DNA from: Felis catus
Lineage: Eukaryota
DNA: 64,000 nucleotides
Assembly: GCF_018350175.1 (NCBI RefSeq)
Contig: NC_058368.1
Coordinates: 84,632,001-84,696,000 of the forward strand
Direction: 5' to 3'
Of the stretch, positions 21,240 through 47,239 are shown piece by piece. The position numbers and the translations under genes are program-made. The notes beneath the pieces were generated by a model. It ran no database searches. It was not told the DNA's origin and was given only the letters and a program-made list of their open reading frames with translations. The first letter of the stretch is position 1, and every line of letters begins with the position of its first letter.

Positions 21240-23490
21240 ATCTTAGGGCCAAGTTTTGTCACAAACTGTTTGTGAGGTCTCAGGTCAGAAATTGTCTATG
21301 CAGAAATACCTGTGTGCAGACATTCTGTTTCCAATTTCCTTTCTATCAGAATGGCACTCACCTCAGCAGCTGTCCTTGAGTTCTAGAGGAGTCAACATGT
21401 GTAATAAATTTGACTACGATGGGCAGGTTGTGCTGAGTGTTACCTCCCTGTAGTATCCTTTCTCAGAGCCATGGAGACCCTTGCTCACTCTCTGGAGAAT
21501 GCAGTGAGTAGTGTGGTGCAGCGGTGACTATGATCCTGAGCTGTGCATTACAAATACCAGAAACTCTTCATTTGCATTCCAACACATCTATTTAAAACTG
21601 GTAGACACCCTGAATGTCATGCCACTCCCATTCCAGAAGCTAAATCACACACCACCACAGCTTTCCTTCTATGTCCTCCTGGGGTAAGCATGTGTCATTA
21701 CCTCTGTCCTTTGAAAATGTGGCCTGGAAGTCAAAAATTCCAAGGAAGCACTGAATTTGGAAAAAGAATCTCTGAAGCTCAGGGACATAAGCCTGGCCCT
21801 GACATCCCCACCTCCAGTTTGGATGACCTCTCCTTAGACTGAAGGAGCTCAGCCTGTGACTCCTCTGCTCTCAGGTCCTGGGTCTCCTCCCTTTCTACCA
21901 GCCCCTGTCTCATGTTGGGCCATGTCCAGGGAGCCCTGGCCCTCTGGCAAGGTCTTTCAATGTTGTCCTTCAGGTACACAAAATTAAAAAGCAGATTTTA
22001 CATACTTTGATGTTCTTTTACACACACTGTGAGGGAATTCTTTAGCTTAGACTTTTTTGGAGATTTATCACTGTGCCTGCCTGTGTTAAAAGCCATTTGT
22101 ATAAATGTGAGCTTTGTACCCAATTCTCCCAAAGCTGTATCTATGGCTTTCATTCCCAAAGACAGCTTCCCAGATGCAGGTCTTTCTCTTGTCCTTAGTC
22201 ATGGCAGAGAGAACTCCCCAAAAGATAAACTCTCCCCAAGTGATATGTTACCAGGCCATCAGACTGAAGTTGGCCTCAGGCCTGCAGGTCAGAGACTCAC
22301 CAACACCTGGGCACAGAGATCCAATGTGTGTACTGAAATTTGAATAGCTGAAAGCACCAGCTGAGTCTTGGCATCCAGCCATGAATCACTGACATGTGGG
22401 AGTAAACCCCCAACAGATGGAACAACCTCTACTTCCACAGGGGACCCTACACCTTACCCTCTACTGGAGGGAGGATTTGTGCCTGAGCAATAGCCTCAAA
22501 TTCCTCATGTCTGGGTACACATGCCCCACCTTTCTGGGTTTGGGTTGTTCTTCCTGCTGTGTCCTGACCTTCCATGTGCCTTACAGAGTCACAGATCGTG
22601 TTAGGGTGGAAGGGGCCCTGGGTCCAGTTTGCCCATTTCTGACAATGGGGGCACCACCTGGGGGCCAAGAACGTGTTCATGGCCAGGGCTATTAGGAGGC
22701 AGTGGGAGGTTTCTGAGGCCCCTGTCCTCACTGCCTGCAACTTCTGGGCTCACGTTCATGGAAGGCAGCATGGGATGGGTGGGGACTGGTAGCAGACTCC
22801 TCCAGCCAGCTCCCCTGGAACAGCCAGTGATACTGAATTGCACAGGCAGAGAACAGCTCTGAGAACAGTGAAGGAAAGCCTGGGGCTGGACCCTCACTGT
22901 GCATGTGGGTGAGTCTTAGAGGGTGAGGGACGGGTAGGCAGCTGGCTTTACTGTGTGCAGTGTCTGCAGGGGCACAGAGGTGCAGGTGCCTCTCCGTGTA
23001 CACAATAAGCTTCCCTTTGCTGAGCATGGAGTGTGTTGTGAAAACCATACAATTAGAAAAGGGATGTGGGCTTGTTTCATGAATCTCTGAGGGCAGGTTG
23101 GGGGCTGTCCCTTGCTGACTGTGTGGTAAGGAACCATTGGCATGGGAGGGGCAATGTAACCCTGTCTCTCTACACTGGGAGTCTTGAGTGCCTGGATTTT
23201 ATAATGGCCTTCTGCCCCTAACATTAGTTACAGCACCATGCGGCTCTCAGCATGGGCTCGCTTACAGGACCAACCACCAGATGGCTGTCCCCTTCATTTT
23301 CTGAACAATCAGCAGGTGGCTCTCAGCTGTGGTCTCACTAAATTCTTCAATCATTAAGCAGATCGACCAGCCATTCATCAGACAGGTTGCTGGGCCAATC
23401 ACCAGGAAACTCTCTGCGTTTTCTAACTCAAATGGCCAATCACAAAGCAGCTCTCACAATGGTGTCACTCCTGTGTCCAATCACCAGGCA
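21240..23490 (-). pseudogene. Cassette A: decayed paralog of the unidentified intronless gene, with shared downstream flank
   Basis: Shares tttcctttctatcagaatg (21335 vs 30424) and gagaactccccaaaaga (22209 vs 31147) with B. Minus-strand ttataaaatccaggcactcaagac (from 23204) resembles ttataaaagccagtcaagac (44454). (V)RVQPQAFL at 22897 resembles MTLQPQLFL in C. Confidence 0.6.
23197..23490. promoter_or_regulatory. Phased CCAAT-box array plus minus-strand TATA box
   Basis: CCAATCA at 23395, 23436 and 23477; variants at 23270, 23305 and 23347; TTATAAAA on the minus strand at 23197-23204. Confidence 0.6.
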
Positions 23491-23739
23491 GCTCTCACCC
23501 CACCCTCCTTCCCTCATTCCCCAGGGACCATCATGGATCCTGCAGTAGAGGAAACAGCATGAACGCATGTCCTCTCCCCATATCCCCTGTGGCACAGCCT
23601 TCCTGTCCCAGGTGAGAAACTGTAGGTGGGACAGTAACCTGAGGCTCACAGGTCCCGGGGGATGCAGTGTGATCAGGGTTGGACCTGTCCTGCATCGGTT
23701 GTGTTTCTTGTGTCATCAAGCCAGGATCTTAATCCTGAG

Positions 23740-25260
23740 AAGAGGTCAGTGCAGGTGTCTCATTTCAGGTGGGTAGGATGCACCAAAGTTGGGGTGTGTT
23801 TGGATCCAGTTTTTAAAGGGAATTTCTGTGGAAACAAAAGGAAGAAAGGTTGAGATTGGAGCAGATCATAGACTGGAGAAGATTATAACCCCAGGTCTGA
23901 GTTCTGGAGGAATTGGAGAGAGGGGGAGGGAGAAAAAATAAATGTGTTCATTCTGCTGACTAAGGTATCATTTCCCAAATTGAGGTAAGTCATAGATAGC
24001 TGGAAAGGAAAGGTGTTCTTATATCTGGCAACAAAATACTAAGGAAACAGCAACAAGTTTTCCAACAAGTCATAACAATTCTGATCATCTGATAACAATT
24101 CTGATCATCCATAGTTTATTCGCTCATGTAATTAATTTTTGCACTTTCAAATTTTTAAATTAGTCCTAGAAAGTTTTACCCAGGTCAGTTTTATGACCTT
24201 AACATTAACAGAAACCTGTTCTCTAGGATCTTTTTCATGAACTCCTTGAAGATGAAGCATTTTTGCAGTAACACTTTTGTGAAAAGATTTGGGTAAAAGA
24301 ATAACTGACTGTAAATTGTAAAAGACTTAAGATTGGCATGGATAAAAGTTTGGTCATTACAGACCAATTGAGGAAATTTGGTTATTTTAGTACAAATATT
24401 TTAACACAGTAACCAGAATTACAGGTGTTAACAATACATGAGGACATATCAGATCTCTTAGAATTTTGTACAGTTTCTGGGCTGCTGACATTAATAGCAC
24501 GTATCCACATAAATAAAATCTCGGAAGGATTAGAGTCAAATGTTTTATGATACTTCCTGTATAATTTAACCATGCTTAAATAGCCTGATTAGTTGAACAT
24601 TTCCCTTTTTATAGGAGAAAGAATAAATTCATTTTGATCTTGACCCACTTGACCACATATTAAAATTTCTTCTCAAAGATTCCTTTTCCACGACGCTTCT
24701 ACAATTTTTTTAATTCATATTTTGTCCTAAGTTTTCATTCTTTAAATAATCACCCTCACTTTTGGACCCAATTGCTTTTTATTTCTTCAACATAAACTGA
24801 TTTCCTTTGCTTTTCTTTAACTAAAGACTGCATCCTATTTTTCTGCAAGGAGAGATGTTTCCCATATTCATTCTAGTTGCTTCAACTGCATAGAAAATTC
24901 TTAACACTTTTTTTCTAACAGAACTAAGTATTAAGCAATTGTGAACTGTCTGCTGTGCCACCATTTGTTTGAGAGGAAAATTTCTGAATACATTTCATAA
25001 GTCCTAGAAACGTGTACTTTTTCACAGATCAATCTTTCAGTAAATCACAAGACATGTTTACTAAGAGACCCAAATTTATCTTCAGTTTCTCTGTAATGAG
25101 GAAGCCAAAAGTAGGTCAACTTGTGTTCAGTAAGGAATGTTTCCTTATTTAATCTTATTTGGAAATGATCCAGATATGCAGTGGCACATTTAACTTAACA
25201 CAGCCCTTAACTTCATCCTAATTGAAGATTTAAAGTTACCAAAAGATGTGGAGAAACTAT
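23740..25260. mobile_element. Probable ERV1-class internal fragment
   Basis: AT-rich block abruptly interrupting GC-richer sequence; resembles recalled non-coding internal regions of MER4/MER34-group elements; no ORF support. Confidence 0.45.
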
Positions 25261-28200
25261 GTGAAAAGTGTACCTAAATTTCTGGTGTGATACCAGAGTG
25301 AAGTGGACACAATGGGCCTGGAGGTGGGTGAGGTGGTGGCCCCTGCTGAGGACTGTGCTGGCCCTGGGTCAGTGTGGAGGTCCCAGGAATCAGCTGGATG
25401 GAAATTCAGGTGCCCATGTTCCATCCTGTCACAGGGAATGACCCACTCTGGAGGTGGGGGACGTGCTTTCAGGTGCTGCTGATGGGAGCCAAGGACTGAG
25501 ACATGCTGGCAAGGACCTAGTGGGTGGACGGGCCACAGCAGTGAGTGAGGCTCAGTCATACCAAGCTCCTTCATTTACCTGAAGGGGACTCTGGGGACTC
25601 CCATCTCCTGCCCCTGTTCCTCAGATGCAGAAAGACACTGATGTGGAGACCCATGTGCAGGAGGACGTGAGGCGTCAGGTGAGCACTCTGGCACCTGCAG
25701 ACCAGGAGGTCCCCTGGAGCTAACTATCAATTCCATGCCTGCCCCTTCCTGGTGAGGACAGGCCCACCAACCCACAGCCTGCCTCTTCCCTGCTGTCACA
25801 CCTCAACGGAAGGTGAATCAGTGGCCAGGTGATGATGTTATTTGTTGTTCACCCACACAGATTTCAAGATATTGATACATGAAGAGTATTTAGGTGACAC
25901 CACTTGTGTGTCCGCAGGACAGAGTCTGGTGTGCAGCATCCCAGACATGCCTGGGGGCCTGGTGACCTTGGTCTGCTGTGTGTCCAGACATAGACCAGCA
26001 GGGAGGCGGGCAGGGCACTCTTTCCTTTTCACTGTTAGGCTGTGCATGTAAACAATCAAGCTCTGGGTGAAAGGCCGCTATCTGGGCCAGCATCACAGAA
26101 ATTGTCCCTGCATCCTGGAGAACACAAATTCTGTGTGATCTCAGTGCAGTGTGTCCCCTAGATGACCTCCAGGGGGGATGCATGGGGTAATCAGACCTTC
26201 TGGGTCCTATGTCAGAAGGTTGTACCCTGGTCATAAAATGACAATTTAACATGTCAGGATGTTTCACTGCTGCTGCCAAGATTGTTTACATTAATAACTT
26301 GTTTGTTCTGGAAAAGTAAACTGAAGCTACATGCACAAAATCACTACATTACAGAGACAACAAAGGGGGAAGGAAAGCATGAATATCAAGAAATCCAGCT
26401 AATTCTGACTTAGCATCGGGCCACCTGCTCCCTCTGCTCACTGAACCTACAAGATAACCCCAGGTGAAGTTTTTGCTCTTGAAGGTGTCAGGAGAAAGGG
26501 ACTGGATTTTCATTCAACAGTTCATTCTGGAGACCTCAGTCCAAGGAGATCTGGTGCTTCATGCCAGCAGCACACGACTGACTGTGAGGAAGAGACAAGA
26601 CCTCAAGCTAAGGATCCCAAATTCATGGTGCTCCTCCACACTTCTTCTCCTCATCCATGTGTGGGTGTGGTGGGGTTACAATTCTGAAAGCTCAGATCTG
26701 TTAGTGCCCAGAAGGATCCAGTGTTCCCCAGAGCCCTGGTCATGGCCAGAAACCTTTCGTCTGAGGATGGAGGCTCCATACTGGTGGACAGTTCGAGAGC
26801 TGTCACCACACCCCATCTCCAAATCCTATGTCCTATTATTTCCTTTGGCCCCACCCCTGACTGCACTGAGGGAGGGTTCTAGGTCCTGGCGCTGATGCTG
26901 ATGGTGCTGGGAGTCCCACAGGGTACAATCTGGGTCTGTTAGGGGGTGTGTAGGTGGAGGAGGGATGAGGGCTCAGGGGCCAACCTGGCTCAGGTTCATG
27001 TAGGTGGAGGACTGAGTGGACAACCTGGCTCTGGGTGTATGAACCTCTGATGTTGTCTCTCAGTGTTGCTGAGATCCCTTTCTCCAATAAGAAGACTTAT
27101 CAGGGGCCAGAGGCTACAGTCCAGATGTCACTATGTGAGCAGGTACTCTTTCCAGGAAGGTCTTCACCCACAGATGGTAAAGCCACCTGACCTCAGCCCC
27201 ACTGAGGCTTGAAGAGTCACAGGCATCCAAGACTTTTCCTAAATGATTACATGGTTGAAGAAACATGGGAACAGAGATGGTTACAGTCAGGGAAAACTTA
27301 CCTTATATGATAAAGGGCACTGGAATAGTTAAAATACCTACCTGTTCTTTACAAAAGGTGAGAAGCCAGTTAACCTGCCATTCTACCTACCTTTGTCCAA
27401 GCTCTTGTTATGCCCAGTGGCTTGTGTTGAAGGAACCAGTAAGCCTGGGACTTGGGTACATGCCAGCTCATGGAGTGTCCTGTCTGAATGCAGACTTCTC
27501 CAGGCACATCCTGTGTCTGCAGTGCCCTCACAGTGGTGCTGGTTGGAAGAACTACTTCCCCAGTGGCCTCCAAGTACACCTGCAAAACAAGCCAGACGCT
27601 ATGTCTTGTATGGTCACAATCTTCTGCAGAGTTATGGGCATAAATTACTCCTGCATCACCCAGGCCAGACAGCCAAGGCTCAGGGTGTCCTGGGGATGAC
27701 CTACCTGGGAGGCACGTCTGCCACTGAACCACTAAATGGCCTTAGTGAGTCATTATGCAGAGTAGTCCATGAAGCACTCTACAGGAGCCCAGGATGCAGA
27801 AGTTTGAGGTTGGACACTGAACCCAAAGAGGGACACAAGGGCACCATTGGTCACCTCATCCCACCTGCAGCCCTGAGGAGAAGGGTTGAGAGATGCCCAT
27901 GGGGAGTGCATACTTGATGCCTGTTTGAAGCACCCAGAGTCTGAAATGTTCCCAACAGTTATGGCCATGGACCTTTCAGAGCTGTGGCTTTAGTCCCCAA
28001 CTCCCTACCATGGTCCTGTCCTGAAGCTCCATCTGCCCTGTGGTCTCGTCTCCATTTGAATTTAATGCATGGTTTACCAAACAACAAATCATGCTGACTC
28101 TGGGTTCAGGGAAGTACTCTATCCTGTTCACCAGGACAATTCTTTAGGGAAAAGGCACTTAATAAAGATTTGGAGTCAGTGGGGACTCGGATGAACAGCT

Positions 28201-29319
28201 ACTGTTTAGATATTACACCATATCACATAGAACTAGATTGAATTAGACTGTATCTTTCTATGTGGCTTGACCTAAAGAACAATGTATTCATTAGTGCAAA
28301 ATACCAGCAGGCACTTACCCACTGGGTAAGGGTTCAATCCCTGTGCTCATGGAGGTAATGTTCTGGGAGAAAGAACACAGTGAAGTGAGGCAATCACAAT
28401 GAGTCCTGGGGCCAGAGTGTTAGCTCAGGGGATGGATTGAGAAGGCGATGGACTAGTTTGTCAAGGGAGACTTTCTCCTAAGGGTTCCTAAAGTAATGCT
28501 GAAGGGACCAGGCACATGGAGATTCACCCTCACAGTACCCGGGGAATTGCTGCAGTTGTGCCTGGATCAGCCCCTCCAGTCCTCCACCATGCAGTCCAGT
28601 CCTCCCACTGCTGCCACACTGAGGAGCACAGCATGAACAAGCTGACTCATCTTCAGTTTCCCTGTGTGGAATTTAAATGCCTGACTTTGAGAAGTGGTTA
28701 TGGACATCACTTCCATTTCAGGAAACCCACTCTTGCAGGAAAGTGTTAGTGTTAAGTGTGACAAAAAAAAAAGTTTCCCAAAGATATGTTTTACTTAGAC
28801 CATAATGAATGGACTCTCCCATTTGAGGGGCCAGACTGATGGACTGTATGGGGAGGTGTTCTGGTAGAGACATGCTTGTGTTGAAATGACTTGGAGGTAC
28901 AAGGATATTCCCTTCAATCTAATTGGAGTGATCTGAAAAGTCAACTTATTCCAGCCATTCTGTGTCACTGTGGAGATGATGGCTCTGTCTAAAGAGAATA
29001 AGAGGTAACCTGTCAGGAAACAAGCACCTGAGGCTTAGAGCTCAGAGATGGCTGGACCAGGGATGGGCATGGTCCTGGATGTATGTATGAAGGGAGAACA
29101 ACTCTTTAGACCCCTGGTTCTTAAGTCAGTGGTGAGAGGTCCACATCCCTAGGTGGTGCCAAGGTGGATGTCAGAGGACCCCACACCTGCTTCAGGTTCA
29201 TGCAGAGAGAGGGAGAGACTGGCCTTTGTGCTTCCAGGTGAGCTGACCACCAGGCTATTCTCCATTTGTGACTCCATGTGGTGGTGATGTCATTCCCAAG
29301 CAGACATTTGTGAAGGTTG

Positions 29320-32300
29320 GGTATAAAGGAGTGTGTCCCATAACACACAAGTCAGCACACCAGCTCAGAGCTCCCCCCACTCCTGACCTGATCCCTATCA
29401 GGAGGTCCTGGGGGATGGTACTTAGGCTGAGGACACATATAAGTGGGGCCACCTTGATTTAAGTTTTGACAAATCCGAAGACCCACAACAATCTTTTCAG
29501 TAAACCCTTCCTTACCTACTTCCTTCAGTGTAAACTAAACCTCTCCATGCTGTCAACACACAGTACACACTTCCCAGCCTCCCCACTGGCTCTTGAAATC
29601 AGCAATCTTCTTACCATCTTAGACATCATCCATCTTAGAGATTCCAGCCTCTCTCTTCCCAAGTCCACCTCAAATTTATCTTTTCCCAAAGAGCCAGGTT
29701 CTTCTTCTCACTTCTTCCCAGGTTCTATAAGCACACTTCCTTGAGCTCCATAGAGAGATTATGACGCTATGCTCTCCTCCACCTTGGCTGCAGCCACAGG
29801 CAAGCCCTAGCTCATTGGATCCTACAAGGGGCCTGAGCTCCCATGTAGTCCCTGGATGTGAAAGGGGCCATCTCCAGGAACAAGCAGTACCTCAAACCTT
29901 ACTTTCCACCTTCTTTCTGTCCCATTCATGACTGATTCTCATCTCTGCCTTTTAGAAGAGTCCAACTTCTTCCATATCTTCAGACTACCTCTAGTAGTCT
30001 GCCTTACTTTATCCAGCTTCTCTGCCTTACTTTATCCTGCTACCCCTCCACCTGGATCCACCAGTAGGAATGTGGATGTCTCCCCCAAATCCTGCAGTGC
30101 TTCTGTGGCTCAGCGAAGAAAGCCCACCCTTTATGTGACTTCCTCTAGCCTCTAACTGCTTGCCTTACCCCACAGCATCTCATCCAGAGACAGGGTTTGG
30201 TCTCTGGAATCTCTCTGCCCTGGTTGCCTAGTTGTCTTGTCACATTTGATCTTAGAAGGTCTGCATCAGACAGGAACCTATAGTCAGGAAATATCTGCTG
30301 TGGTGGCCAGAGTTTGGAAACTTCACATCAAGGTCCAACCTCAAGTTTAGCAACAATCTGCCAGGAGGTCTCAGCCTAGAAATGTTTTATGCAGAAATAC
30401 CTGTACAGACATACTGCTTCTCTTTTCCTTTCTATCAGAATGTCAACTTCAGGTGGTGTTGGGCTCTAGAAGTCAATGTATTGGGAAATATTGATGGGGA
30501 CAAGCAGGTTGTGCTCAGTGCTCAGTGTCAGCTCCCTGTAGTTCACTGACACTTTTTCAGATCCATGGAGACCTCCTCACGCAATCAGGAAAATGGTGAT
30601 TATTCATAAGATGTGTTCATAACTACAAGCTGAACTGCACATCAGTATCACCGAGGGGTTGTTTTTCCTAAATTAATTATTCAGAAATGATCATTCAAAA
30701 TTATTTTTTAACGCTCATATAAATTGTAAACTCATATCATGCCCCCAGTCATGGAGATGACCCCACGTTTCCCTGCTTCCATTTTATGACATCTTGGGTG
30801 GGTGAGTGCAGAGACATCACCTCTTAGACAACATCTCCTGGAAGGGAAAAGCTTCCAGAAAGTCCATAGTGTATGCAAAGAATCTCTCCACCTTATGGAG
30901 CTGAAGCTGTCTCTCTCCCCACTGCTTGGCCTGTTCTTCTAGGGCTTCCACCTCTCCCTCCAGGTGGGAACACCTCTCCTTTATCTGGAGGACCTCAACC
31001 AATTACTCCTCTGTACCCAGGGCCTGAGTCTCCTCTGCAAATTCCTCCCATCCCCCATCCTTATGTCTGGAAGTGAGTTTTAATAAAAAGTCTTTGAACC
31101 ACTTGTCTTTCTCTTCTTTGATTGAATGGTGTTGTTTTCTTGTGAGGAGAACTCCCCAAAAGAGAAAGGTTGCACAGGTGACAGTCCACAAGGACCTCTT
31201 GCTGAAGTCCATCTCAGACCAGTGGGAACTCAGTTGCCCTGTTTCTTCCTGTGTTGAAGGTTTCCCAGTTGACTTGGTGTCCTGGAGACTTGTTTGCCCA
31301 GTATAAAGCTGGGTTAGAGGAGTCATTACCAAAGAGCTCCCCATAGACCTAGTATTCTGTACATCCGATTGTCCTATAATGTGCTGGGTGGCAGGGGTTT
31401 TGTTCTGAAGCCACCTGGCTAGCCTGTTGTCTGGGGAGATTCTATTCCAGCATTGGGATGTGGTAATTATGGTCCACGGGCTCCAAGTTTGTCTGGTGTT
31501 CTCACAACTAGGTTTCCAGGTCTCTGCTGGCTTGGAGGTCTCCCATCAGAGGGCATATGGTAAGTCTGGTGTCTGAGTTGTCCATGTGTCATGGAGATGT
31601 CATGGTCTCAGGGATTCCAGTGGGCCTGGTATTATGGGGACTTGGTTGCTCCATTCTCTGCTAAATTAGAAGGCTCCTCCGATTTGTCTCAGATTCCAGG
31701 TGACTTCTTTTCTTGCTGCAGAGTTGGATTGGAGGACTTATGCTCCTAAGGTTCCTGGTCATCCTGTTGTCCAGATAACACATTTGTCCAGTGCTGAGCT
31801 TGGCTAGTAGGCTTGTTATGTAAGGGTTCCCAGTAAGCCCAATGTCTGAGGGACTCATTTGCCCAGTGCCAAGCTTGGTTGCAGAGGTTTGGGTCAATGT
31901 ACTCCTGGAAGTCTTGGTATTCTTGGGACTTGATGGCCTTATTCTCTGCTGGGTTGGGGAGCTTGTTGTCTGAGGGCTCCTGCACTGTCCAATGTCCTGG
32001 AAACTCATCTGCTCAGTGCCAGATGGGGTTGGAGGTCTCCCAGCCTGAGGTCAACCGTTTTCTGGGGAAACTGCCCTGTGCTCTGTTGGTCAGGCCTTTT
32101 GATAAGAGGGCTTCTGGTCAGCCTGGTATCCAGGGGATTCTTGTGTACAGTGCTCAGCTCTTTTGGTAGGCTTGTGGTTTGAGGGCTCCTGGTGGGTGTA
32201 GTGTTCTGGGGACTCGATGACCCTGTGCTCTGCTTGGTTGAAAGGCTCATGAGCTGAGGGCTCCTTGTCAGCACAGTATACAGATGACTCCTTTTTCAAG

Positions 32301-32875
32301 TGCTGAGCTGGGTACAAGGACATGGGCCGAAGGATTCCAGTTGGTCTGGTGTTGTGAGGACCCAATAGCATTATTCTCTTCTGGGAAAGAGAACTCCAAG
32401 TTAGAGAACTCCCACTCACCATGTCTAGGGGTCTCCTTTGTCAGTGTCCATCTGGGTTGGAAGGCTCATGGTTTTCAGGTTCCTCCCAAGCCTGGTATTC
32501 TTGGACTTGGCTGCCTTCTGATCTTCTTGTTTGGAGGGCTACTGTTCAGAGGAATGTCCCTCAGCCTGGTGCCCAGGGTCTTCACTTGCACATTGCCCAG
32601 CTGGGTTGGAGGTCTCAGGTGTCCCAGAAGGCCTGGTGTTCTGGGCACTCAATTTTCCTGTCCTTTGTTGAATTTGAGGGCTCCCACTTAGCCCACTGTC
32701 TGGGTGATTCTTTTTCCCAGTGCAGACATGGGTTGCATTTCTTATGCTCTTAAGGCTCCTAATGGCTCCATTGTCCAGGTGTCATGTTTGTCCGGTGCTA
32801 ACCTTGGTTGCAGGGGTTTGGCAAGAGTGCTGCTGGTAAGCCTGGTGTGTGGGCACTCAATTGCCCTATGATTCA
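29320..32875 (-). pseudogene. Cassette B: disabled gene body with a 75-bp coding-type repeat plus downstream flank; 5' end cut by L1
   Basis: Minus-strand peptides repeat every ~25 aa (EPSNHKPTKRAEHCTQESPGYQADQ; EPLHNKPTSQAQHWTNVLSGQQDDQ; WHWANES) with in-frame stops; inverted homology to 44500-46800. Confidence 0.7.
31345..32875 (-). repeat. Diverged ~75-bp tandem repeat, about 21 units
   Basis: Equivalent gcctggt...ggact motifs at ~31763, 31838, 31912, 31988, 32121, 32196, 32270, 32345, 32420, 32490, 32564, 32631 and 32840. Confidence 0.85.
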
Positions 32876-34265
32876 CTGGAAGTCATAGATACAGAAATTA
32901 GGAAACCAAAAGAAAGAAAAGGCATCCAAATTGTTAAGGAAGAATGAAAACTTTCACTATTTGCAGATGACATGATACTCTATAGATAAAACCCTAAACA
33001 CTCTACCAAAAAATACTAAATCTGATAAATGAATTCAATAAATTTCAGGATAATGAATGAATGTTCAGAAATCTGTTGCATTTCTATCCATTACTAATGA
33101 AATAGCAGAAAGAAAAACTAAGAAAACAATGCCACTTGCAATTGCACCAAAAATAATAAGATGCTTAAGAATAAACCTAACCAAAGGGGTGAAAGGGCAT
33201 TGAGGAGGGCACCTGTTGGGATGAGCACTGGGTGTTGTATGGAAACGAATTTGACAATAAATTATATTTAATATAAAAATAATCAACGTGAATATGAAAG
33301 ATCATACTCATCCAAAGTAAAAAAAAAAAAAGGAAAAGAATAAGAATACAAAGTTGCAAATAAAATTTTAGATAGAAATAAGAATTTACTTAGAATAACA
33401 AAGAAATTATAACAAATTACAAATTTAACAAAGTTTCCAAATACTATAAACATTAAAAAATTCAGAAAAATATAATGTTTTTATTAAATAACTACCTGTC
33501 AAGTTTCCATATTTTTTCTGTTTTTTGCTTGCCTATTCTTTGATTGCTTTTTACGTGACAATGCTTTTCTGTTACCCTGTGCAAAGAGAGAATAAAAAGA
33601 GAATTCAGTCTTTCCTCCAGAAAAAAAATATACTCTGAAATCTACAAAATATGGATGAAAGAAATTGAAGATGACACAAAGAAATTATAAGCCATTCAAT
33701 ATTCATGGATAGGAATAACAAATATTAATAAAATGTATCTACTACCCCAAGCAATCCACAAATCCATGCCATATCTATCAAAATACCACCAGCACTTTTC
33801 ACAGAACTAGAGAAAACAATCCTAAAATTTATATGGAACCTCAATAGAGCAAGAATATCGAATGCAATCTTAAAAACTAAAAACTGGAGGCATCACAATT
33901 CTGGACTTCAAGTTACATTACAAAAGTGTCATAAACAATACAATATGATGACATCATAGAAACAGACATATAGATCAGTGGAATGGAAAGAAAACTCAGA
34001 GATAAACCCACAGTTATATGGTCAATTATTCTTGGACAAATCAAGAAAGAACGAACAATGGGAAAAAAATCTCTTCAGCAACTAGTATTGGGAAAACTGG
34101 AAAGCAACATGCAGAAGAATGAAACTGGAGCACTTTGTTACAGCATACAAAAAAGTAAATTCAAAATGAATGAAAGACCTAAAGATGAGACCTGAAGTCA
34201 TCAAAATCTTAGAGAACAGAGGCAGTAACCTCTTTGACATTGGTTGTAGCAACTTCTCATCAATG
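32876..34265 (+). mobile_element. LINE-1 ORF2 fragment (RT FADDM region onward)
   Basis: ctttcactatttgcagatgacatgatactc; GINLTK-like and later ORF2 motifs; interrupted at 33195-33628. Confidence 0.92.
33195..33628 (+). mobile_element. Short young L1 3' end with probable 3'-transduced sequence
   Basis: 33195-33270 matches 8398-8470, followed by non-L1 DNA, AATAAA at 33591 and A8 at 33621-33628; host L1 then resumes. Confidence 0.65.
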
Positions 34266-36316: not shown

Positions 36317-36379
36317 TTGCAGTGTATATTTTTGGTACTGAGAACAGTAAATTAAGTATTTAGACACACAAGTTTTGTG

Positions 36380-37496
36380 TCAGACATGCCACTTGATGTG
36401 TATCAGGAGTTTTATTGTGTGTACTGATAGTTGTGTTCACTACACTAGTGTATATACCAGCATGTGTACTTATGTCTGCCACTGTGTGTGCTAATGTGTT
36501 CTAGGTGTACCAGTGTGTACTAGTGTGTATAATAGCATATGTACTACAGTATGTGCTAGTATGTGTACTAGGTGTGCCAGTGAGTGTACAGCTAATGCTA
36601 GGGTGCGCTCATGTGCATATTAGCATGTGTATTTGTGTGTGCTTGTGTGTGTACTAGTATGTATGTTCAGTGTGCCAGTAAGTGTACAACTAATCCTAGT
36701 GTGTCATAATGTGTATACTAACATGTGATATGTGTGTGTGCTAATGTGTTGTAGGTGTGCCAGTGTGCACTTGTGTGTATACCAGTATATGTACTAGAGT
36801 GTGTGATAGTATGTGCACTAAGTGTGCCAATGAGTGTACAACTAGCACTAGTGCACACTCATGTGTATATAGCAAGTGTACTTGTGTCTGCTATTGTAGT
36901 TGCTTGTATGTGTACTAGGTGTGCCAGTGAGTGTAGAAATAATGCTGGAGTGTGCTCTTGTTTATACTAACGTGTACTTGCATATGCTTGTGTGTGTGCT
37001 AATAGTTGTACTCGTGTGAAATAATATTTGGGAACTAGCATGTGTACAAGTGTGTATGAGTGTATATGAGATGTGCTAATATATGCTAGTATGTACTAGT
37101 GTGTGTACTAGTAAATGACAGTGTATATACTAGCGTGCACTAGTATTAACATATATACTAGTGTGTGATAGTGTGTAATAGGTTTACAACTCTGTGTGCT
37201 AGCTAGCATGTGTTCTAGCTGTGTGTTAGTACTTGTGCTACATTGAGCATAGCTTGTGTGCTGCAGTGTATTAGTGCGTAGTAGTATGTACTGGACATAC
37301 TATTGTGTGTACTGACATAGCAGTTTTATACTAGCGTGTACTCATGTGTTTACTAGCCATTTACTTGTATTTGTGCTAATATGAGTACTAATTTGTGTGC
37401 TATTGTATCCTAGTGAGTAGTAGAGTGTGCTAGACATGATGCTGTGGTCTACTGTGTGTCCTAAATGTGTACTAATGTACACCCCTGTGTACACTA

Positions 37497-37536
<40 letters not shown>

Positions 37537-37565
37537 ACGCTAGTGTGTGCTAGGTGTGTGCACTA
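36380..37565. repeat. Complex degenerate TG/CTAG-rich simple repeat with higher-order units
   Basis: Recurrent gtgtgtactag and gtgtgccagtgagtgtaca; ends in a pure (TG)n at ~37504-37533. Confidence 0.9.
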
Positions 37566-37569
37566 GGAA

Positions 37570-37886
37570 GAATAATGGAGGATTGCATCACAAATGACAT
37601 CATGGCAACATCCCAAGCAGTATGCCTTGGGAATACATGATGTCATAGAGGACCAGCCAATCAGAATCCTCCCCAGCCTGTGGTCCTCTGGTGGGTGGCG
37701 GTGGTTGGGAGTGAAGGCAGAGTTTGAAGCAGGAGTTTCCAGGGTACCCACAGTCCTGGACCTAGGAACCTCCCCACAGTGGGCGTGCAGCATAGCTCCT
37801 GAAGTTCCACCCCCTGGAGTCCCTCCCTCCCACATCTCCTCAGATATCCTGTCACCTGAGCCTGCAGTTATCTACTTCAGGTGAGT
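37570..37886 (+). promoter_or_regulatory. Putative promoter and first exon (CRE-like, X-box-like, CCAAT, splice donor)
   Basis: tgacatca~37595, catggcaac~37601, tgatgtca~37638, gccaatcag~37656; CAG|GTGAGT at 37880/37881. Confidence 0.4.
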
Positions 37887-37929
37887 TACTTTTTAGGGAA
37901 TGTTCATCACTTGTGCTCTGAATTAGTTT

Positions 37930-38375: not shown

Positions 38376-38454
38376 TCACCAGTAAGGGTAATATACCCTT
38401 AATCATTAAATATTCATGTTCTTCCAATGTATCTTCTTACACCTTGTATGGTGT

Positions 38455-38847
38455 TTTTTTAATTGAGATGTAAATGATATATTACATTAGTTTTATGTGT
38501 ACAAAATAATGATTTTATATATAGTGTAAAAATATCAACAAAATACATGTTAATATTCACCACCATGAATATTCACAATATCTCTCATAGTGAAAATCAA
38601 CTTTTAGCAAGTGTTAGACAAGATCACTAGCTAGAGTCACCATGCTGCTTTTTAACCACCTTCAGCCAATTTGCCCACCTCCTGACCCCACTTCTGTCAA
38701 CTACTAATCTCTTCTTTATGAGATTCCACATATAAGTGATCGTGTGTATTTGTCTCTTATTTCCATGAGCATAATGACTTCAAGGTCAATCCATGTTGAC
38801 AAAGTGGTCAGATTTCATTCTTTTCATGGCTAAATAGTAACTGCAGT

Positions 38848-38895
<48 letters not shown>

Positions 38896-39870: not shown

Positions 39871-40304
39871 CTTTTGTATTTTGGTAGTAGTTATGTTATG
39901 AGAAGATAGGGGATTTTAGTAAGTGGCACAGGGGCAGGTTGTCTCCTGGTGATGCCCACGTCCAGCTCACAAATGGGAGTCAGACTCAGAGAAAAAGAGA
40001 CATTCCTGTGTGTGGATAAAGAAACTTTAACTGCCACCACCTTCCCCATATCTTAAATCCTGGTCGTGTGAGTTTGACGCTGTGTATAAAAACACAGTTG
40101 AGCATGAATATAGTTTGAAAATGGATGTGTGTTTCAGGCTGCATGGGCAAAAATATTTTCCTGTTGGAATGTACATTCAAAGGTTTGAGATAACTGATTT
40201 ATAGCACAGATGAATCTATTCTGTCTGGGAGGAGGATGGGACATATTTGTGGTGTGCTACACCATAAAGAAAAGGGGTGGGAAAGATGTAGAGCAGAATT
40301 TAGC

Positions 40305-40776
40305 TTTTTGTAAATTTTAATTTTTTATTATTTTTTAAAATACAATTTATTTTCAAATTGGTTTCCATACAACACCCAAGTGCTCATCTCAACAAATGCC
40401 TTCCTCCATGCCCATCACCCACTTTCCCCTCTCCCCCACCCCCCCATCAACTTTCAGTTTGTTCTCCGTCCTTAAGAGTCTCTTAAGGTTTGCCTCCCTT
40501 CCCTCTATGTAACATTTCCCCCCTACCCTTCCCCCATGGTCTTCTGTTAAGTTTCTCAAGATCCACATATGAGTGAAAACATATGGTATCTGTATTTCTC
40601 TGTCTTATTTCACTTAGCATAATACCCTCCAGTTCCATCCATGTTTCTGCAAATGACAAGATTTCATTCTCTCTCATTGCCAAGTAATATTTCATTGTAT
40701 ATATAAACCACATCTTCTTTATCCATTCATCAGTTGATGGACATTTAGGCTCTTTCTATAATTTGGCTATTGAAAG
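40305..40776 (-). mobile_element. 5'-truncated felid L1
   Basis: MWFIYTMKYYLAMRENEILSFAETWMELEGIMLSEI; 3'UTR like that of 7806-8494. Confidence 0.93.
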
Positions 40777-41889
40777 TAAGCAGCATCTAGCAGCATGACA
40801 GAGGTGGCTCTGTCATGAGTATTTGCTGGAAGACTAGCCCTGTAGATGTCTTGACCAAAGCTGACCACTAGGGCTGTAAAACATAAAACCTTTTAGTGGC
40901 TACATGTTTTCTTGAGATAAGACCAAATTTTGACCATGGACTCCCTAGCTCTGTGTATTCCGCTCTTTACTCCAGAACCAATCCCTCCTCTGACCAATGA
41001 GGCATTTTTTTTCCTTTGGTCTTCCAATTACCCTCCCCCAACACATGCATCGCCTCCTCTGTGGACTTGTCCCTGGTGCCCTTTTTAACATGTACCAGTA
41101 AGCCAGGTTCCATGAAGCAGAGACCACCTGTGTTCCCCCTGCCCCTCATGTGTCTCTTTGCTAATACAGTAGTAGCAGATAGCAAGTGCTTGAGGAGTGT
41201 TCGCAAATCAGGGAAGGAGGCAGTTTTGTGTCAGACCCTGTCTTTCATCCCTGTCTTCAAGGAACTCCTGACTGTGCAGTGGAAGAAACAGATAGCTGTG
41301 CTGTGGGATCAGTGCTCTAGCAGAAGAAAACCCAGGGCACTCTGAGGAAACACATGGGTGTGTCTGTCAAAAACACCTTCACAGAGAAAAGGAAACTCAA
41401 AAGGGCATTTGCACAAAGCCAGGGGAAAGGGAAGAGAGAGGAGTTACTGTAGGCTCCCTCTGCTGGTGGTTAATCACCCACCCTGTCTTCTCTCAAGACT
41501 GAGCTCCATGGCCTCATTCTCATTTCTTATCTCCCTCCTTGTGATCTGTGTGAGCCTCTATTATACTCCCTCCAGTGGGTCATGGCAGCTGCTTGCCAGC
41601 TTTTAATTTCTATGAGTATACTTCCCTTTGAGGTCTCTGGCTTTTCCTTCTACTTGCTTGGTAAATGTCTTGTGGTGGAATGACTTTGTTGTGATCATGT
41701 ACTGTTATTGTGGGAGGAAAATTTGGAGTTCATCCCCTCCTTTTATGGATAGACAAACTGATTCTCAGCAGATAAATTACTTGCCCAAAGACAAACCCTT
41801 GGTTTGTGCAAATGAGGACCAGCACTTAGGTATCCTGACTATTGAGGCAATGGCTCCATCCTAAGCATACTTCCTTTTTGTTTTCCTTG

Positions 41890-41985
41890 TCTTCTCCTTC
41901 TCCTTCTCCTTCTCCTTCTCCTTCTCCTTCTCCTTCTCCTTCTTCTCCTCCTTCTCCTCCTCCTCCTCATTTTTCTTCTCCTTCT
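41890..41985. repeat. (CCTTCT)n microsatellite
   Basis: Direct inspection; probably derived from the tail of the adjacent L1. Confidence 0.95.
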
Positions 41986-42483
41986 TTTTTCAATTTAAAG
42001 TTAGTTGACATAAATTGTATTCTTAGCTTCAGGAGTAGAGCCTAGTGATTCATCTCTTACATATGACACGTAGCGCTCAATCCATAAATTGCACTTCTTC
42101 ATGCCCATTACCCATTTAACCCATTCCCATACCCACCCCTCCTCCAGCAACCATTAGTTTCTTCTGTGTGTTTAAGATCTCTTATGGTTTGCTCCCTCTC
42201 TGTTTTTATCTTATTTTTCATTCCCTTACCCTGTGTTCATCTGTTGTGTTTCTTAAATTCCACATATGAATGAAATATGATATCTGTCTTTCTCTGACTG
42301 ACACTCCATCCATGTCATTGCAAATGGCAAGATGTCATTCTTTTTTTTATGGCTGAGTAATATCCCATTGCCTATATACACTACACCTTCTTTATCCATT
42401 CATCAGCTCTTGGACATTTGGGTTCTTTCCATAGTTTAGATTTTATTCATATAACTGCTATAAACTTTGGGGTGTATGTGCTC
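41986..42483 (-). mobile_element. L1 3' end
   Basis: cttaaattccacatatgaatgaaat; attgcaaatggcaagat; ttctttatccattcatc. Confidence 0.9.
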
Positions 42484-42499
42484 AAGGATTTATAACTTG

Positions 42500-44130
42500 A
42501 TTCTTTAATCTGTCACCTCTGCCATCAAATAATATTTCCTCGCATATATATGTTACTTCACTAGATGAACAATATACAACCGAACACAATAATAAACTTC
42601 CATTTCCCCTTTCTGACCTTTGTGACATTCATGTCTTCTGTTTTACTTGACACTTGCTATAGACTAAGCAGTATGTTGCTTTTACATTTCCTTAAACCTT
42701 ACTGTATCTTTTAGAGGAAAATTTTAAATGAGATGATGAAAGTCTGATATTTTTCCAGTTACTATTTGTACCCTCTTCATTACTTCCTACATACCAGTGC
42801 CCATCTGTTACCATTGTCTGTTGGCCTGAAGAACTCTCATCGACATTTCTTGTAGTGTGAGTCTATTCTATGACACTTGCAGTGTTGATATGCCTGAAAT
42901 GGATTTATTTGTCTTCATTTACTTAAGGAAACTTTTCTAGATGTGGAATTTGAGATTGTCATTGGCATTTTCCTTCTTTCATGATTTAAAGATGTCATTT
43001 AACATTATTGGTTTATAATTTCTTCTAATAAAGAGTTGGCAGCCCATTTAGCCTTTACCCATATGTATCATGTGTGCTTTCTGAATGTTTTCAGATTTTT
43101 CTTTCTCACTCATTTCCACAATTTCATTATTATAGGTCACTGTCTGATTTTGTGTTTGTGTTTTTCTACTTGGGGTTCACAGAAACTTTTGCATGGATGG
43201 GTTTATGGTTTTATCCAGTTTGGAGATTTAAGGCAATTACTGTTGGGTCTCACCCATTCTTGTGTTGTCCCAAGAGTCACTGATGCTCTTTACATTTATC
43301 TCCTATCTCTTAGTGTCTCTGGGCTTCCATTTGCATAGTTCCTATTGCTGTATCTTCAAGTTCTCACACTTTGTCTGCATCAACCCATCATTCTTTCTTG
43401 TTTGATTTTGTTTATATTTATTTATTTTTGAGAAAGAAACAGAACATGAGTAGTGGAGTGACAGAAAGGGAAACACAGAGTCTGAAGCAAGGTCTTGTCT
43501 CTGAGCTGTCAGCACAGAACAAGACGTGGTGCTTGAACCAACAAACCATGAGATCATAACCTGCACCGAAGTCAGATGCTTAATTGACTCAGCCACCAAG
43601 GTGCCACTCATCCCTTCATTCTTAAAGCCCATTTGGTATAGTTTTTCATTTCACATATCCTAGTTTCAGCTCTGTAAATTCTATTATTCTTTATGATTTC
43701 CCTTTGTCCCCGCATCACATGTATATTTTCCTTTAATTCCTGAGCATATTTATAATGGCTCTTTTCACATTTTCACCTGCCATTTGGGGTCTTTGTCTGT
43801 GGACTGCTTATTCTCATTGTCACGAGTCCCATTACCCTGCTTATTTGGATGTCAAGTAATTTTTTATTGGAGGGTGGACATGAGACTGTGACAGTGTTGA
43901 AAATCTGGATTTTTTATACCCTTCTTATGAGTGCTGAATGTCATTTTGGCAATTAGTTGATAATTTCTGTCTCAGCTTCATCTTCTCTAGGTTTAATGTT
44001 TTTATTATGGTAAGATATACAATGCATAGTATGTACAATTTCCTCGACTTATTTTTAGGCTTTGATGGATGAGTTGAGATTAGCATTTGTTCTAAAGTCA
44101 TGTTGTTAGATTTAATACTGAAATGTGACC
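42500..44130 (-). mobile_element. Ancient L1 remnant with a nested Can-SINE (~43400-43606)
   Basis: gcctgaagaactc...catttcttgtagtg; tttaaagatgtcatt; ttatccagtttggaga, typical of old L1 ORF1 antisense. Confidence 0.6.
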
Positions 44131-44329
44131 TTTCATGGGGTCTCCTGATCCATGTATTGATTCATTTTGCTGTGTTGTATTTAAAGATGACTCTGAGTGA
44201 CACATTTGGGTTTGTATTGTTTGACTCTTTTGGCCTCACCATGACTTTAGTAAAAATAGATCTCACATATTAATTTTTCATCATGAAGGAAAGTTAACAT
44301 TCCTTTAAAATGTAGTGTCCAAGTGACGA

Positions 44330-44465
44330 TGTCAGGAAGGCCAATGAGCCTTCAGTGATTGGCCAGCTGAACAAGGCCAACCTGAGGGAGCCCTGGTGAT
44401 TTTCCAGGCATGGTTGTGACATCACTAAAAGGCATTGTGACACACCAGTGCTGTTATAAAAGCCA
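44330..44465 (+). promoter_or_regulatory. Promoter of cassette C
   Basis: CCAAT at 44341, ATTGG at 44358, TGACATCA at 44417-44424, TATAAAA at 44455-44461, ATG 35 bp after the TATA box. Confidence 0.65.
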
Positions 44466-44495
44466 GTCAAGACCCAGGTGGTACTGAGGAGAGTC

Positions 44496-44960
44496 ATGAC
44501 ACTTCAGCCACAACTGTTCCTGCCATTCCTCCTGTTGTTTGCCTGGGTTGTCTTCCCCTGTTGATGGCAAACCCATTGCCCACTATGAGCCTTCAAACTA
44601 TAAGCCCTCCATCTCAGCTTAGCATTGGACAGAAAACTCACTGGGAAACCAGCCTGAACTGGTAGCTCTTTGACTGGGAGCCCTCCAACTCAGCAGACAA
44701 GTAAGCAATTGATTTCCCAGGACAACAGGCCCACTAAGAGCATTGTGAGACCAGGCCTTCTGTTCTAGTTTGGCACTGGGCCAATGAGTCCCCTGGACAG
44801 TGTGCTGACCAGGAGAGTTTCCACCAAAATTTCTGCATGCCAGTAGAGCACAGGACAACTGAGTCCTTATCACCCAGGATTGACTTCAGCCTTAAGTCCT
44901 TTTGGCCTGTCACCTGAATTTTTCCTCTTTCAGGGAGTTCTCCTCAGAATAAAACAATAC
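44496..44960 (+). pseudogene. Cassette C: intronless pseudogene with signal-peptide-like start and ~4 repeat units
   Basis: MTLQPQLFLPFLLLFAWVVFP, frameshift (TGA at 44562), VDGKPIAHYEPSNYKPSISA*HWTENSLGNQ...WEPSNSADK*AIDFPGQQAH...WHWANESPGQCADQE; AATAAA at 44948-44953. Confidence 0.7.
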
Positions 44961-45975
44961 CAGGCCCTAAAAGATGAGACAAACCAGTAATTTGAAGACT
45001 TTGTATTAAACTTCACGACAGGAGAAGAGGGGGTTGGGAGGAATTTGTAGAGGCGACCCAGGCCCTTAGCACAGAGGGGTCACTGTCTGAGGTCCTCCAG
45101 ATTAAAGCGAGGTGCTTCCACCTGGAGGGAGAGGTGCAGACCTTAGAACAGGTGTAGTAGTGGGGTGACAGGAAGACTCAGCTCCATGAAGTGCAGAGAT
45201 TAATTGTGCACACAAAGGACTTCCTGGAAGATTTTGCTTCCTAGGCAATATTGTCCAAGGGGTAACGTATTCCCACCCACCAAAGATGGCATAAAAGGGG
45301 GGCTGAGAAAAGTGTGATCATCTCCAGAAGTGGGGGCATTGCATGAGTTTACAATTTACATGAATTTTAAATAAATAATTTAAGGTGATCATTTCAGAAT
45401 AATTAAGAGAAACAATCCGTGGGTTATTGTAATGCACATCCCAGGTTGCAGGCAATATTGCATCTTATGACTCATCATATTGTCATGGTGGTGGATAGGG
45501 GTCTCTACAGCTCTGAGAATGTGTCATTGAACTATAGAGAGCTGACACTGAGTACAATCTGCCTGTATGCATCAACACTTTCTCAAACATTGACTTATAG
45601 AACTCAAGGACAGCTGCTGAGGTCAGCACATTCTGATAGAAAGTAAAAAGCAGTATGAGAGCAAATGTGACAAGAGCAGAGAACCAGGATGGAGGGAGGC
45701 CAGAGGCATTGTACCATTCCCTGTCTCTGTTTGAGAGTGTGTGGTATCAGTGTGGTAGGCAAAGAAAGAGGTGCGAGGAGCTATGATGGTGGGCTTTGTT
45801 CTGACCAAGGAAGCAATTCAGTTATTGGGAGGGACATGTGGGATTCAAATTGGGTCTTTAAGGGTTTGGGAGGCAGAGTAAGGCAGAGAGTGAGAGAGGT
45901 GGGAACAGGTGTGCCTTGGAGACTGTAGGGTGTGCATGGGCATGAAGGAAAGTGGCTACTCTCAAGAACAGAGTT

Positions 45976-46210
45976 GGGGCACCTGGGTGACTCAGTCAGT
46001 CAGACATTGGACTTCAGCTCAGGTCATGATTTCATGGTTTGTGGGTTTAAGCACCACATCAGGCTCTGTGGAACCTGTTTTGGACACATCTTGGAACCTG
46101 TTTTGGATTCTGTGTCTCCCTCCCTCTTTCTGTCCCTCCCCCACTCACAATCTGTCTCTCTCTGTCTCAAAAATAATTAAATATTTAAAAGATAAAAAAA
46201 ATAAACAAAA
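45976..46210 (+). mobile_element. Can-SINE
   Basis: ggggcacctgggtgactcag head; TSD aagaacagagtt. Confidence 0.93.
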
Positions 46211-47239
46211 AGAACAGAGTTGAGAGTCCATGATGAATTGGGCACTTGGGACTAGAAGGGAATTCAATTATAAGGTTCCAGGCTCAGCTCTTCCTGGAAA
46301 ATGGTCCCTCTTAGCTCCAGGAATGTGGATTTGAAGCTTAGGTGAGGTGCAGATCACAGTAGGCTGGGGCCTATCTGTGACTCCAGCTGAGGTGCAGGGG
46401 AAAAGTCTAGTCCCATGGCTACTGAGTTGTGCTCAGGACAGGGTGCTCCTAGCACCTGGGCATAAACTGATGGAAACCATGAGAAAGATAACTCTGGAGG
46501 TGGAACATGAATTTCAGGGGGACATGGGAAGTAGGAAGCTTGTTTCTCTAAGATGGGTGGTATCTGACATGACATGAGGGCTCCTGATTTTAGGAGCCTG
46601 TGGGGAGGCCAGTGGAGTCCAAGTCACTTAGATGTAAGGCGGATGTGGGTCGCTTTTGTGATCCCATCCTTTGGAAACTCCTGGTTATAGCAGCTCAGAC
46701 CCTGTTCAGCACACCCTGGTTTTCCAGAAACATCAGGCTCCTGGATGGGCTGAGAGCTCAGAACTCCTCACTCCTTGAATCTCCATTCCTTTATATATAA
46801 AATGCAGACAACCTGGAGTGGGGGTGTTGTCAAGTGAAAAGGAGACACAGGAGATGTCAGGGTTCAGGAGAGGATAAAAAGGGCAAATGAGAGGTGGTCT
46901 CCTAAGGAAAGATAAAAATTGGGACAGTCCACTGTGAGCCAGGTCTTGGTTCTGGCCCATCCATCTCAAAGGAAAAGCATCAGCTCTAGAGGAGTAGTCT
47001 GGGTTCTGCTTCTGTTACACACCTGGTTAAAGTCTGTCACAGCTCAGCACCTGCCCAGTCACAGCCCAGCACCAGACCCCTTTTACCTCTTTCCCTGCTG
47101 CTTGACACCCACGGGTTATGGTTCTGGGAAGGCTTGGAGCTCCAGGGAGCCAGGGTGGGACTGCTAGATTTAGGCAACTATTCTGAGAAGTGATGACAGG
47201 TAGAGCATTAATATAGGTAGGTAGGTATGTAGGTAGGTA

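Follow-up and report, generated by a model that had tools for sequence, protein, structure and literature searches.

Three pseudogenes at a felid locus from an old and probably intronless gene family of predicted single-pass membrane proteins, possibly TANGO1/cTAGE5-like

A 64,000-nt stretch of the Felis catus genome (here, the window) contains three related segments, A, B, and C, which a first-pass annotation described as disabled copies of a gene for a secreted, E/P/Q/H/W-rich repeat protein. Are these the remains of a real gene, and if so, what kind of protein did it encode? We tentatively propose that all three are broken members of an old gene family, likely without introns, whose predicted products are single-pass membrane proteins that may be TANGO1/cTAGE5-like.

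The three segments are homologous. In permissive blastn comparisons, B (31242-30410) matched C (44850-45657) at 72.7% identity over 842 nt (499 bits), A (21915-21250) matched B at 60.5% over 750 nt (142 bits), and A matched C at 61.0% over 611 nt (143 bits), while the top score from 50 dinucleotide shuffles of each pair was just 31-34 bits. The gene lies on the minus strand in A and B and on the plus strand in C, which confirms that A and B are co-oriented and C is inverted. Of the short anchors that had been proposed, the first lies at 21335 and 30424, the reverse complement of its core is at 45629-45643, and the 19/20 WHWANES match between B and C was reproduced. The second is a 17-mer at 22209 and 31147, although the string originally given has one A too many; C has a copy with two mismatches at 44926-44942 (3 matches versus 0.04 expected). 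A nearby V1R pseudogene is also supported: its open part (52290-52814, plus strand) matches the Pfam V1R model (E 1e-30), and its 5' half is broken. Rfam had no matches over positions 20000-49000 of the window, and of 101 candidate stretches in viral contigs, none was a match.

Copy C, on the plus strand, has all of the elements that were claimed for it. A promoter with two 41-nt units (44336-44461) includes CCAAT at 44341, ATTGG at 44358, a CRE-like site (TGACATCA) at 44417, and TATAAAA at 44455. An ATG and a 22-codon hydrophobic leader follow (44496-44564, with a stop at the end). The leader of this one copy is a putative signal peptide; of the window's 891 open 22-mers that begin with ATG, 3.8% reach the same hydrophobicity. 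None of the relatives that we retrieved includes the 5' end, so the leader is known from C alone. Within about 30 nt of the leader are four 75-nt repeat units (44593-44867; spacings of 76, 75, and 75 nt), followed by a conserved core (44885-45265) with several stops, deletions of 2, 4, and 3 nt, and a natural stop at 45263-45265. An AATAAA (45370-45375) lies about 105 nt past the natural stop, and in a related locus, L001, the AATAAA (449) is at a similar distance from the stop. The 3' flank of C (45266-48070) is collinear with L001 (63-77% identity) and is broken by a SINE-type repeat at 45975-46214. The end of segment C had been placed too early, at 46800; the unit reaches at least 48070.

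Copy B, on the minus strand, has a longer array (31223-32879): 23 diverged units, each about 75 nt or 25 codons in length, cut off on the 5' side by an L1-like piece that begins at 32877. We found no promoter unit for B and no AATAAA downstream of it. Its conserved core (30817-31209), which the first-pass annotation overlooked, encodes a hydrophobic segment (31194-31138) and then a coiled coil, with one premature stop (31005-31003) and a natural stop at 30819-30817. The 3' flank (29574-30816) is collinear with C and L001. Copy A, also on the minus strand, has a promoter of six to seven units of about 41 nt, most of them around a TGATTGG (reverse CCAAT) core (23234-23499), and a TATA box (23197-23203) whose flank aligns with the promoter of C. 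That alignment scored 43, which was reached in 1 of 300 shuffles and by other stretches of the window as well, and by itself it is marginal evidence of a shared promoter. The 41-nt CCAAT units are common to both. What else is left of A is a remnant of the hydrophobic-segment region (22165-22298) and a frameshifted coiled-coil remnant with 3' flank (21199-21915), whose closest relative is P0006 (77% identity over 26 residues); no 75-nt repeats were found in A.

All frames are broken, with 21-24 stops per frame over about 687 codons in B and 10-18 per frame over 257 codons in C. The view of an old local gene family, with repeats of a coding type, that is dead in all three copies is supported. 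In themselves, A, B, and C are ordinary pseudogenes. Assembly errors are an unlikely cause of the lesions in B, since 14 of the 24 sequencing runs listed contain 0.99 of the words sampled from B (12 of these runs, from 5 studies, were not flagged as a possible source). Two raw-read runs, whose tissue is not stated, gave no sign that B is expressed (0 and 3 poorly matching reads).

Did the family encode a protein elsewhere? Open frames in its relatives span 251-353 codons. In particular, P0049 (353 residues) and P0039, from otter, are identical at 155 of 251 positions (62%), and the single indel between them is exactly one 25-residue repeat. When we simulated the neutral evolution of this pair, none of 1,500 replicates kept a stop-free frame, and the expected number of frameshifts was about 15. 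Because a stop-free alignment of 251 residues with a unit-sized indel almost never arises neutrally, the family likely encoded a protein somewhere, and we are confident that it is a real family of coding genes. Amino acid identities within the main clade (62-75%) need not exceed what drift would give; frame retention alone does. L001, whose core is open, is also informative: compared to the core of B, identity is 80% at codon position 2 and 69-71% at the other positions, dN/dS is 0.64, and there are 3 gaps in 336 nt of coding sequence versus 39 in 1,299 nt of flank (p 0.017). Between L001 and C, dN/dS is 0.83 and the deficit of gaps is not significant (p 0.15). The position of the natural stop is common to B, C, and most relatives. 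If the segments were instead a non-coding segmental duplication with frames that are open by chance, identity to L001 should be alike in coding sequence and flank, and it is (73-74%). However, the frames retained by the relatives, the neutral simulation, which largely refutes chance, and the excess at codon position 2 and deficit of gaps in L001 versus B make this explanation extremely improbable.

The relative that carries a database name is from otter (Lutra lutra LOC125101263, XP_047587795.1, which is P0039). Among the cluster members that we read, no other named protein belongs to the family, and this one is annotated as uncharacterized; we found no paper that names this locus. P0039 has the same layout of repeats, hydrophobic segment, and coiled coil as B (36.5% identity over 236 residues). 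Unlike A, B, or C, it has an open frame, of 251 codons, which begins inside the repeats without a leader, and it belongs to a separate clade (support 100/99). A single-sequence search for long relatives yielded none from 127 candidates. P0024, a 400-residue cluster member without sequence kinship, was in alignment A2 and was later dropped.

The family's gene is likely intronless. An alternative C-terminal tail in P0010 and P0048 might have been a second exon or a sign of TANGO1 kinship, but L1 sequence at 1258-1323 of the window matches this tail (E 8e-6), and we rejected it as evidence for either. We also rejected splicing as the explanation for joints in run X19: one loose end continues like the genomic flank of L001, and the joints more likely reflect a further collinear paralogue. 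A single 322-nt contig from X20 and metagenome RNA entries were not counted as evidence of expression.

Which frame were the repeats read in? The units by themselves leave this undecided. pN/pS is 0.83 in an S/T/P/R-rich frame and 0.82 in the E/P/Q/H/W-rich frame, and stops are about as rare in the first (6/442 codons) as in the second (8/425), versus 28/445 in the third frame and about 15 in simulations. The ranking of raw column conservation by codon position (2>1>3) is as expected for the E/P/Q/H/W frame, but it is not significant (p 0.22, or 0.61 after adjusting for base composition). Also, units 2-4 of C run into the core in the E/P/Q/H/W frame. In contrast, in B, P0039, P0049, and P0021 it is the S/T/P/R frame that runs from the repeats into the core, as it does from unit 1 of C, so an E/P/Q/H/W-rich product is probably wrong. 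C reaches the other frame through its own +1/-1 indels: compared to B, its junction has a 1-nt deletion that offsets an earlier +1. This state of C is likely derived, as the flanks of C are nearer to those of L001 than the flanks of B are (76.7 versus 71.8%).

Even in C, the E/P/Q/H/W frame leads into the hydrophobic segment. In all five proteins that we scored, a 19-residue hydrophobic segment (Kyte-Doolittle 1.2-1.7) is in frame 3' of the repeats, followed by basic residues and then a coiled coil, so the claim of secretion is not supported. The first-pass view, in which an E/P/Q/H/W-rich repeat protein is secreted and the frame of the hydrophobic segment and coiled coil is secondary, is therefore very unlikely. 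Rather, the family's predicted product is probably membrane anchored, and its topology may be that of a single transmembrane helix whose C-terminal (cytosolic) side carries the coiled coil. In B, C, L001, P0039, and P0046, the frame stops about 110 residues past the hydrophobic segment. A structure model suggests a long helix (mean pLDDT 57, which is weak, and about 70 at the C-terminal end), and Foldseek found no match to this weak model. Searching the sequences of the PDB gave no match at E < 0.001; the best was a designed helix (0.005). Pfam searches with the core and 27 members of the alignment hit only generic coiled coils, below the cut-off.

The promoter raises the question of a retroelement. 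In PMC11853044, the U3 of LTR12 is described as containing CCAAT units of about 41 bp, and its U5 as containing 72-bp units. If this were an ERV9/LTR12-like element, the 41-nt CCAAT (NF-Y) units would be U3, the 75-nt units would be of U5 type, and the open frame would be incidental or co-opted. The two kinds of units do occur in the same order as in LTR12, and many diverged, mostly broken copies of the family occur in public contigs. The resemblance noted here is one of layout. Unlike in LTR12/ERV9, no AATAAA separates the TATA box (44455) from the repeats, no further copy of the promoter follows C as a partner LTR, and 2 kb of shared flank gave no retroviral Pfam match. The 75-nt units also stay in the frame of a protein core, and frames are retained over 251 codons with the unit-sized indel. 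More broadly, no Pfam family was found in 12 read-through frames from the flank of L001 and from between A and B, where very decayed retroviral remnants could escape. We consider a retroelement quite unlikely to explain the family, although the promoter alone may be of LTR origin.

Overall, our best reading is that the family evolved by birth and death and likely encoded single-pass membrane proteins. A promoter with a CCAAT array and a TATA box would have driven a single exon encoding a signal peptide, a luminal part with a variable number of 25-residue S/T/P/R-rich units, one membrane helix flanked C-terminally, on the cytosolic face, by basic residues, and then about 60 residues of coiled coil. 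The coiled coil would tether or scaffold secretory membranes, as a cut-down TANGO1/cTAGE5-like anchor. The unit would have spread by segmental duplication, which is suggested by the kilobases of shared flank, and copies would have died by stops, frameshifts, and insertion of L1 or SINE elements. From the type of promoter, we would guess that expression was in the germ line.

TANGO1-type ancestry is itself tentative. The best named clusters in the ESM Atlas are a TANGO1 homolog (score 0.89, with 173 of 256 features) and TGO1 (0.85). These are two of the top three matches, and the feature count of the better one is in the range for the same family. However, they are a lead only: the scores are below 0.9, the calibration is not for parts of proteins, and just 2 of the 10 best matches agree on a family, which usually indicates the wrong family. 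With P0016 as the query, the Atlas gave no usable match. In the two TANGO1-type clusters, 15-77% of members carry Pfam's NPIP; for our family, NPIP was not among the 25 of 42 Pfam families listed, nor was it found in a second Pfam search, and we found no paper covering both NPIP and TANGO1. At the level of motifs, the family may resemble TANGO1/cTAGE5 and, more weakly, TEX13 and the Bcl-2 BH2 motif; neither TEX13 nor the Bcl-2 family was among the Pfam results listed.

Alternatively, the same dead membrane-anchored family may be unrelated to TANGO1 and an independent, lineage-specific protein with a transmembrane helix and a coiled coil, such as an oligomerizing sperm or epithelial protein with a mucin-like stalk. 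The below-threshold Pfam hits, the poor agreement on a family in the Atlas, and the absence of TANGO1's SH3-like domain, CC2, and PRD would fit this, while the rank and feature count of the TANGO1-type clusters speak against it; we view it as possible but doubtful. In a more specific scenario, which we consider unlikely, an undescribed mammalian offshoot of TANGO1/cTAGE5 under an LTR-like NF-Y promoter has an array that is nearly open in two sense frames, so that single-base indels would allow paralogues to switch the luminal domain between S/T/P/R-rich and E/Q/H/W-rich, and it was kept in otter and other species and lost at the felid locus.

The family has no name and no Pfam model, yet it is found in at least three deep lineages and its frame is still open in some mammals. 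If the link to TANGO1 is true, then this is a case of ER-export machinery that was reduced and put to new use in a fast-evolving gene with many copies, and the loss at the felid locus is a natural comparison with otter. If the link is false, this is still a missing mammalian gene family for annotation to add.

As described in PMC5851698 and PMC7266638, a long luminal part in the TANGO1/cTAGE5 family leads to a single membrane helix and then to a coiled coil in the cytosol; in TANGO1 and cTAGE5, the helix is followed by CC1 (PMC5851698). Our family, with its predicted membrane helix and then a coiled coil, resembles TANGO1 (MIA3) and TALI-cTAGE5 (MIA2) in layout and through the Atlas clusters; no search returned a TANGO1 sequence to align. 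Unlike TANGO1 and MIA2, it lacks CC2 and a proline-rich tail, given where its frame ends; C has no SH3-like domain between its leader and repeats (nor any Pfam match to one); and no second membrane helix is evident. In place of these parts there are 25-residue repeats. Primate CTAGE retrocopies and NPIP are offshoots, either intronless or fast evolving, whose membrane region is TANGO1-like. Although its coiled coil is much shorter than theirs, our family resembles them in its lineage-specific multi-copy expansion.

The window holds three broken copies of one gene: A (21199-23499, minus strand), B (29574-32879, minus strand), and C (44336-48070, plus strand). In blastn comparisons, B and C share 72.7% identity over 842 nt, A and B 60.5% over 750 nt, and A and C 61.0% over 611 nt, all far beyond the scores of at most 34 bits from 50 shuffles per pair. 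L1- and SINE-type repeats are abundant in this mammalian window. The three segments are homologous and every copy is disabled, as the first-pass annotation had proposed; its anchor sequences were also recovered, although one carried a typing slip.

In a tree of 23 rows, A grouped with the protein relative P0006 and others (87/92), while the positions of B and C were not settled. One clade (100/99) comprised 13 relatives, including the otter (Lutra lutra) gene and L001, a relative locus from a metagenome scan. These placements make A, B, and C old paralogues rather than recent duplicates, and the otter gene's clade contains none of them. Contigs from a raw-read run (X19) over 30270-30992 resemble B's flank at about 85%, and the loose end of one runs on like L001. 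These diverged contigs suggest at least one additional family copy outside the window, which apparently has a stop in its core.

A and C have a promoter in common, with 41-nt units around TGATTGG and then TATAAAA (the direct alignment of the two promoters is marginal taken alone); a CRE-like site is present in C and not kept in A. Diverged units of about 75 nt number 23 in B and 4 in C, and A has none. A hand count of the 22 unit spacings in B gave 14 that are multiples of three, including 10 of exactly 75. The repeats are followed by a core of about 130 codons (30817-31209, minus strand, in B; 44885-45265, plus strand, in C), overlooked in the first pass, in which a 19-residue hydrophobic segment is followed by basic residues and a coiled coil. 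GC-rich sequence of about 830 nt (22300-23130) separates the TATA region of A from its core remnant; it has no 75-nt units and, apart from one weak match (E = 0.11), resembles nothing clearly in the rest of the window. It may be a 5' region peculiar to the A subfamily, or inserted sequence.

The unit consensus has two open sense frames, rich in S/T/P/R or in E/P/Q/H/W, and a stop in the third. Within the units, S/T/P/R and E/P/Q/H/W are nearly equal in pN/pS (0.83 versus 0.82) and in stops (6/442 versus 8/425), so the units alone cannot pick the frame, but the repeat-core junction can; the codon-position effect in the units was not significant. The earlier choice had been a secreted, E/P/Q/H/W-rich product. 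C's units 2-4 are indeed in that frame, owing to one spacing of 76 nt and to the loss of 1 nt ahead of the core, but the S/T/P/R frame runs into the core in B, the otter protein (P0039), and the relatives P0049/P0046 and P0021. C's unit 1, which resembles the last unit of the relatives, is in frame with the core in its S/T/P/R reading. Because C's flanks are closer to L001 than B's are, C's frame state is most simply derived; this argument uses the flanks, since the protein tree leaves the B/C order unsettled. The E/P/Q/H/W-rich reading is therefore probably wrong, and we consider a secreted protein quite improbable.

Was this a coding gene? P0049 (353 residues) is 62% identical to the otter model over 251 residues, and the single indel is exactly 25 residues. 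At this distance, none of 1,500 neutrally simulated pairs escaped stops, and about 15 frameshifts would be expected from the indel rate calibrated on the flanks; the pair was chosen for its length, but the margin over neutral is still several orders of magnitude. Between L001 and B, identity is 80% at codon position 2 and 69-71% at the others, dN/dS is 0.64, and there are 3 gaps in 336 nt versus 39 in 1,299 nt (deficit p = 0.017). The coding signs are weaker between L001 and C (dN/dS 0.83, gap p = 0.15). A non-coding origin is very hard to credit. Counting against a complete living gene, the frames of P0049 and P0055 differ at their 5' ends, the otter model begins within the repeats, many of the relatives are fragmentary, and the only leader-bearing 5' end retrieved was C's. 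B showed no sign of expression in the 1-2% of reads examined from two raw RNA runs of unstated tissue.

Searches of 1.84 billion representatives with the core found 14 proteins (E ≤ 0.001), two of which come from this locus itself. Profile searches found 18 relatives among 1,432 candidates and, among 7,997 longer proteins scored, one. Nearly all are unnamed gene calls from short contigs; one cluster has a named record, otter LOC125101263 (XP_047587795.1). The metagenome scan (34 of 64 parts) yielded one locus, L001, among 595 candidate stretches. Its core is open, and its 2.3-kb flank is collinear with C as far as 48070 and with B as far as 29574. At 310-375, L001 lacks about 14 nt close to the usual stop, which shifts its C-terminal tail; P0031 and P0032 have a similar tail at their ends. 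P0010, P0019, and P0048 represent two different paralogues that share one L1-derived tail, attached at an identical codon; this could stem from insertion of an L1, cryptic splicing, or a chimeric assembly. P0024 (400 residues) is unrelated in sequence to the 55-residue P0008 yet sits in its 90% cluster, a clustering error in the collection.

No paper we found names the otter locus (subscription journals or supplements could list it by identifier), and titles and abstract beginnings gave nothing on this family under TANGO1/CTAGE retrogenes, NPIP with TANGO1, felid losses of intronless genes, or the cat V1R cluster. Overall, the gene family is real, locally dead, and apparently undescribed.

As previously noted, a V1R pseudogene lies nearby (52000-52814, plus strand); its 3' half is open (Pfam V1R, E = 1e-30) and its 5' half has stops and shifts. 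Between A and B, AT-rich sequence (23700-25300) gives way to GC-rich sequence (25300-29400); by eye, this resembles a degraded LTR with its internal region, and no Pfam match was found there in six frames. Within it, 28049-28435 has an inverted copy (66%) at 51457-51068. About 1 kb at 17300-18500 has the appearance of decayed coding sequence, with no Pfam match in the three plus-strand frames. Between B and C, 36396-37580 is a long, TG-rich, diverged tandem array, for which TRF gives one 98-nt period.

Our favored, though tentative, reading is of a one-exon gene driven by an NF-Y/TATA promoter. The product would carry a predicted signal peptide and be a type I membrane protein, its repeat stalk in the lumen; the cytosolic, TANGO1-CC1-like coil might serve the secretory pathway as a tether or an oligomeric scaffold. 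The gene would have been copied by segmental duplication and then lost copy by copy. Homology, lesions, repeats, and frame retention are observed here; the signal peptide, topology, ancestry, tissue, and function are inferred. The same layout with no TANGO1 relationship is a somewhat less favored possibility.

The 41-nt plus 75-nt layout is reminiscent of LTR12, which has CCAAT units of about 41 bp and 72-bp units (PMC11853044). Here, however, no poly(A) signal after the TATA, partner LTR, or retroviral domains were found, and we consider an LTR-like element improbable. Pfam gave no family at its cutoff for the core and relatives, and PDB sequence and fold searches were empty. In the ESM Atlas, the best cluster was an unnamed chordate one (0.91), followed by a TANGO1 homolog (0.89; 173 of 256 features) and TGO1 (0.85). 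Because just 2 of the ten best family matches agree, the TANGO1 match is a lead only. In TANGO1 and cTAGE5, a transmembrane helix precedes a cytosolic coiled coil, CC1 (PMC5851698). The family here has only the transmembrane-plus-first-coil part, so we do not file it as a TANGO1 member.
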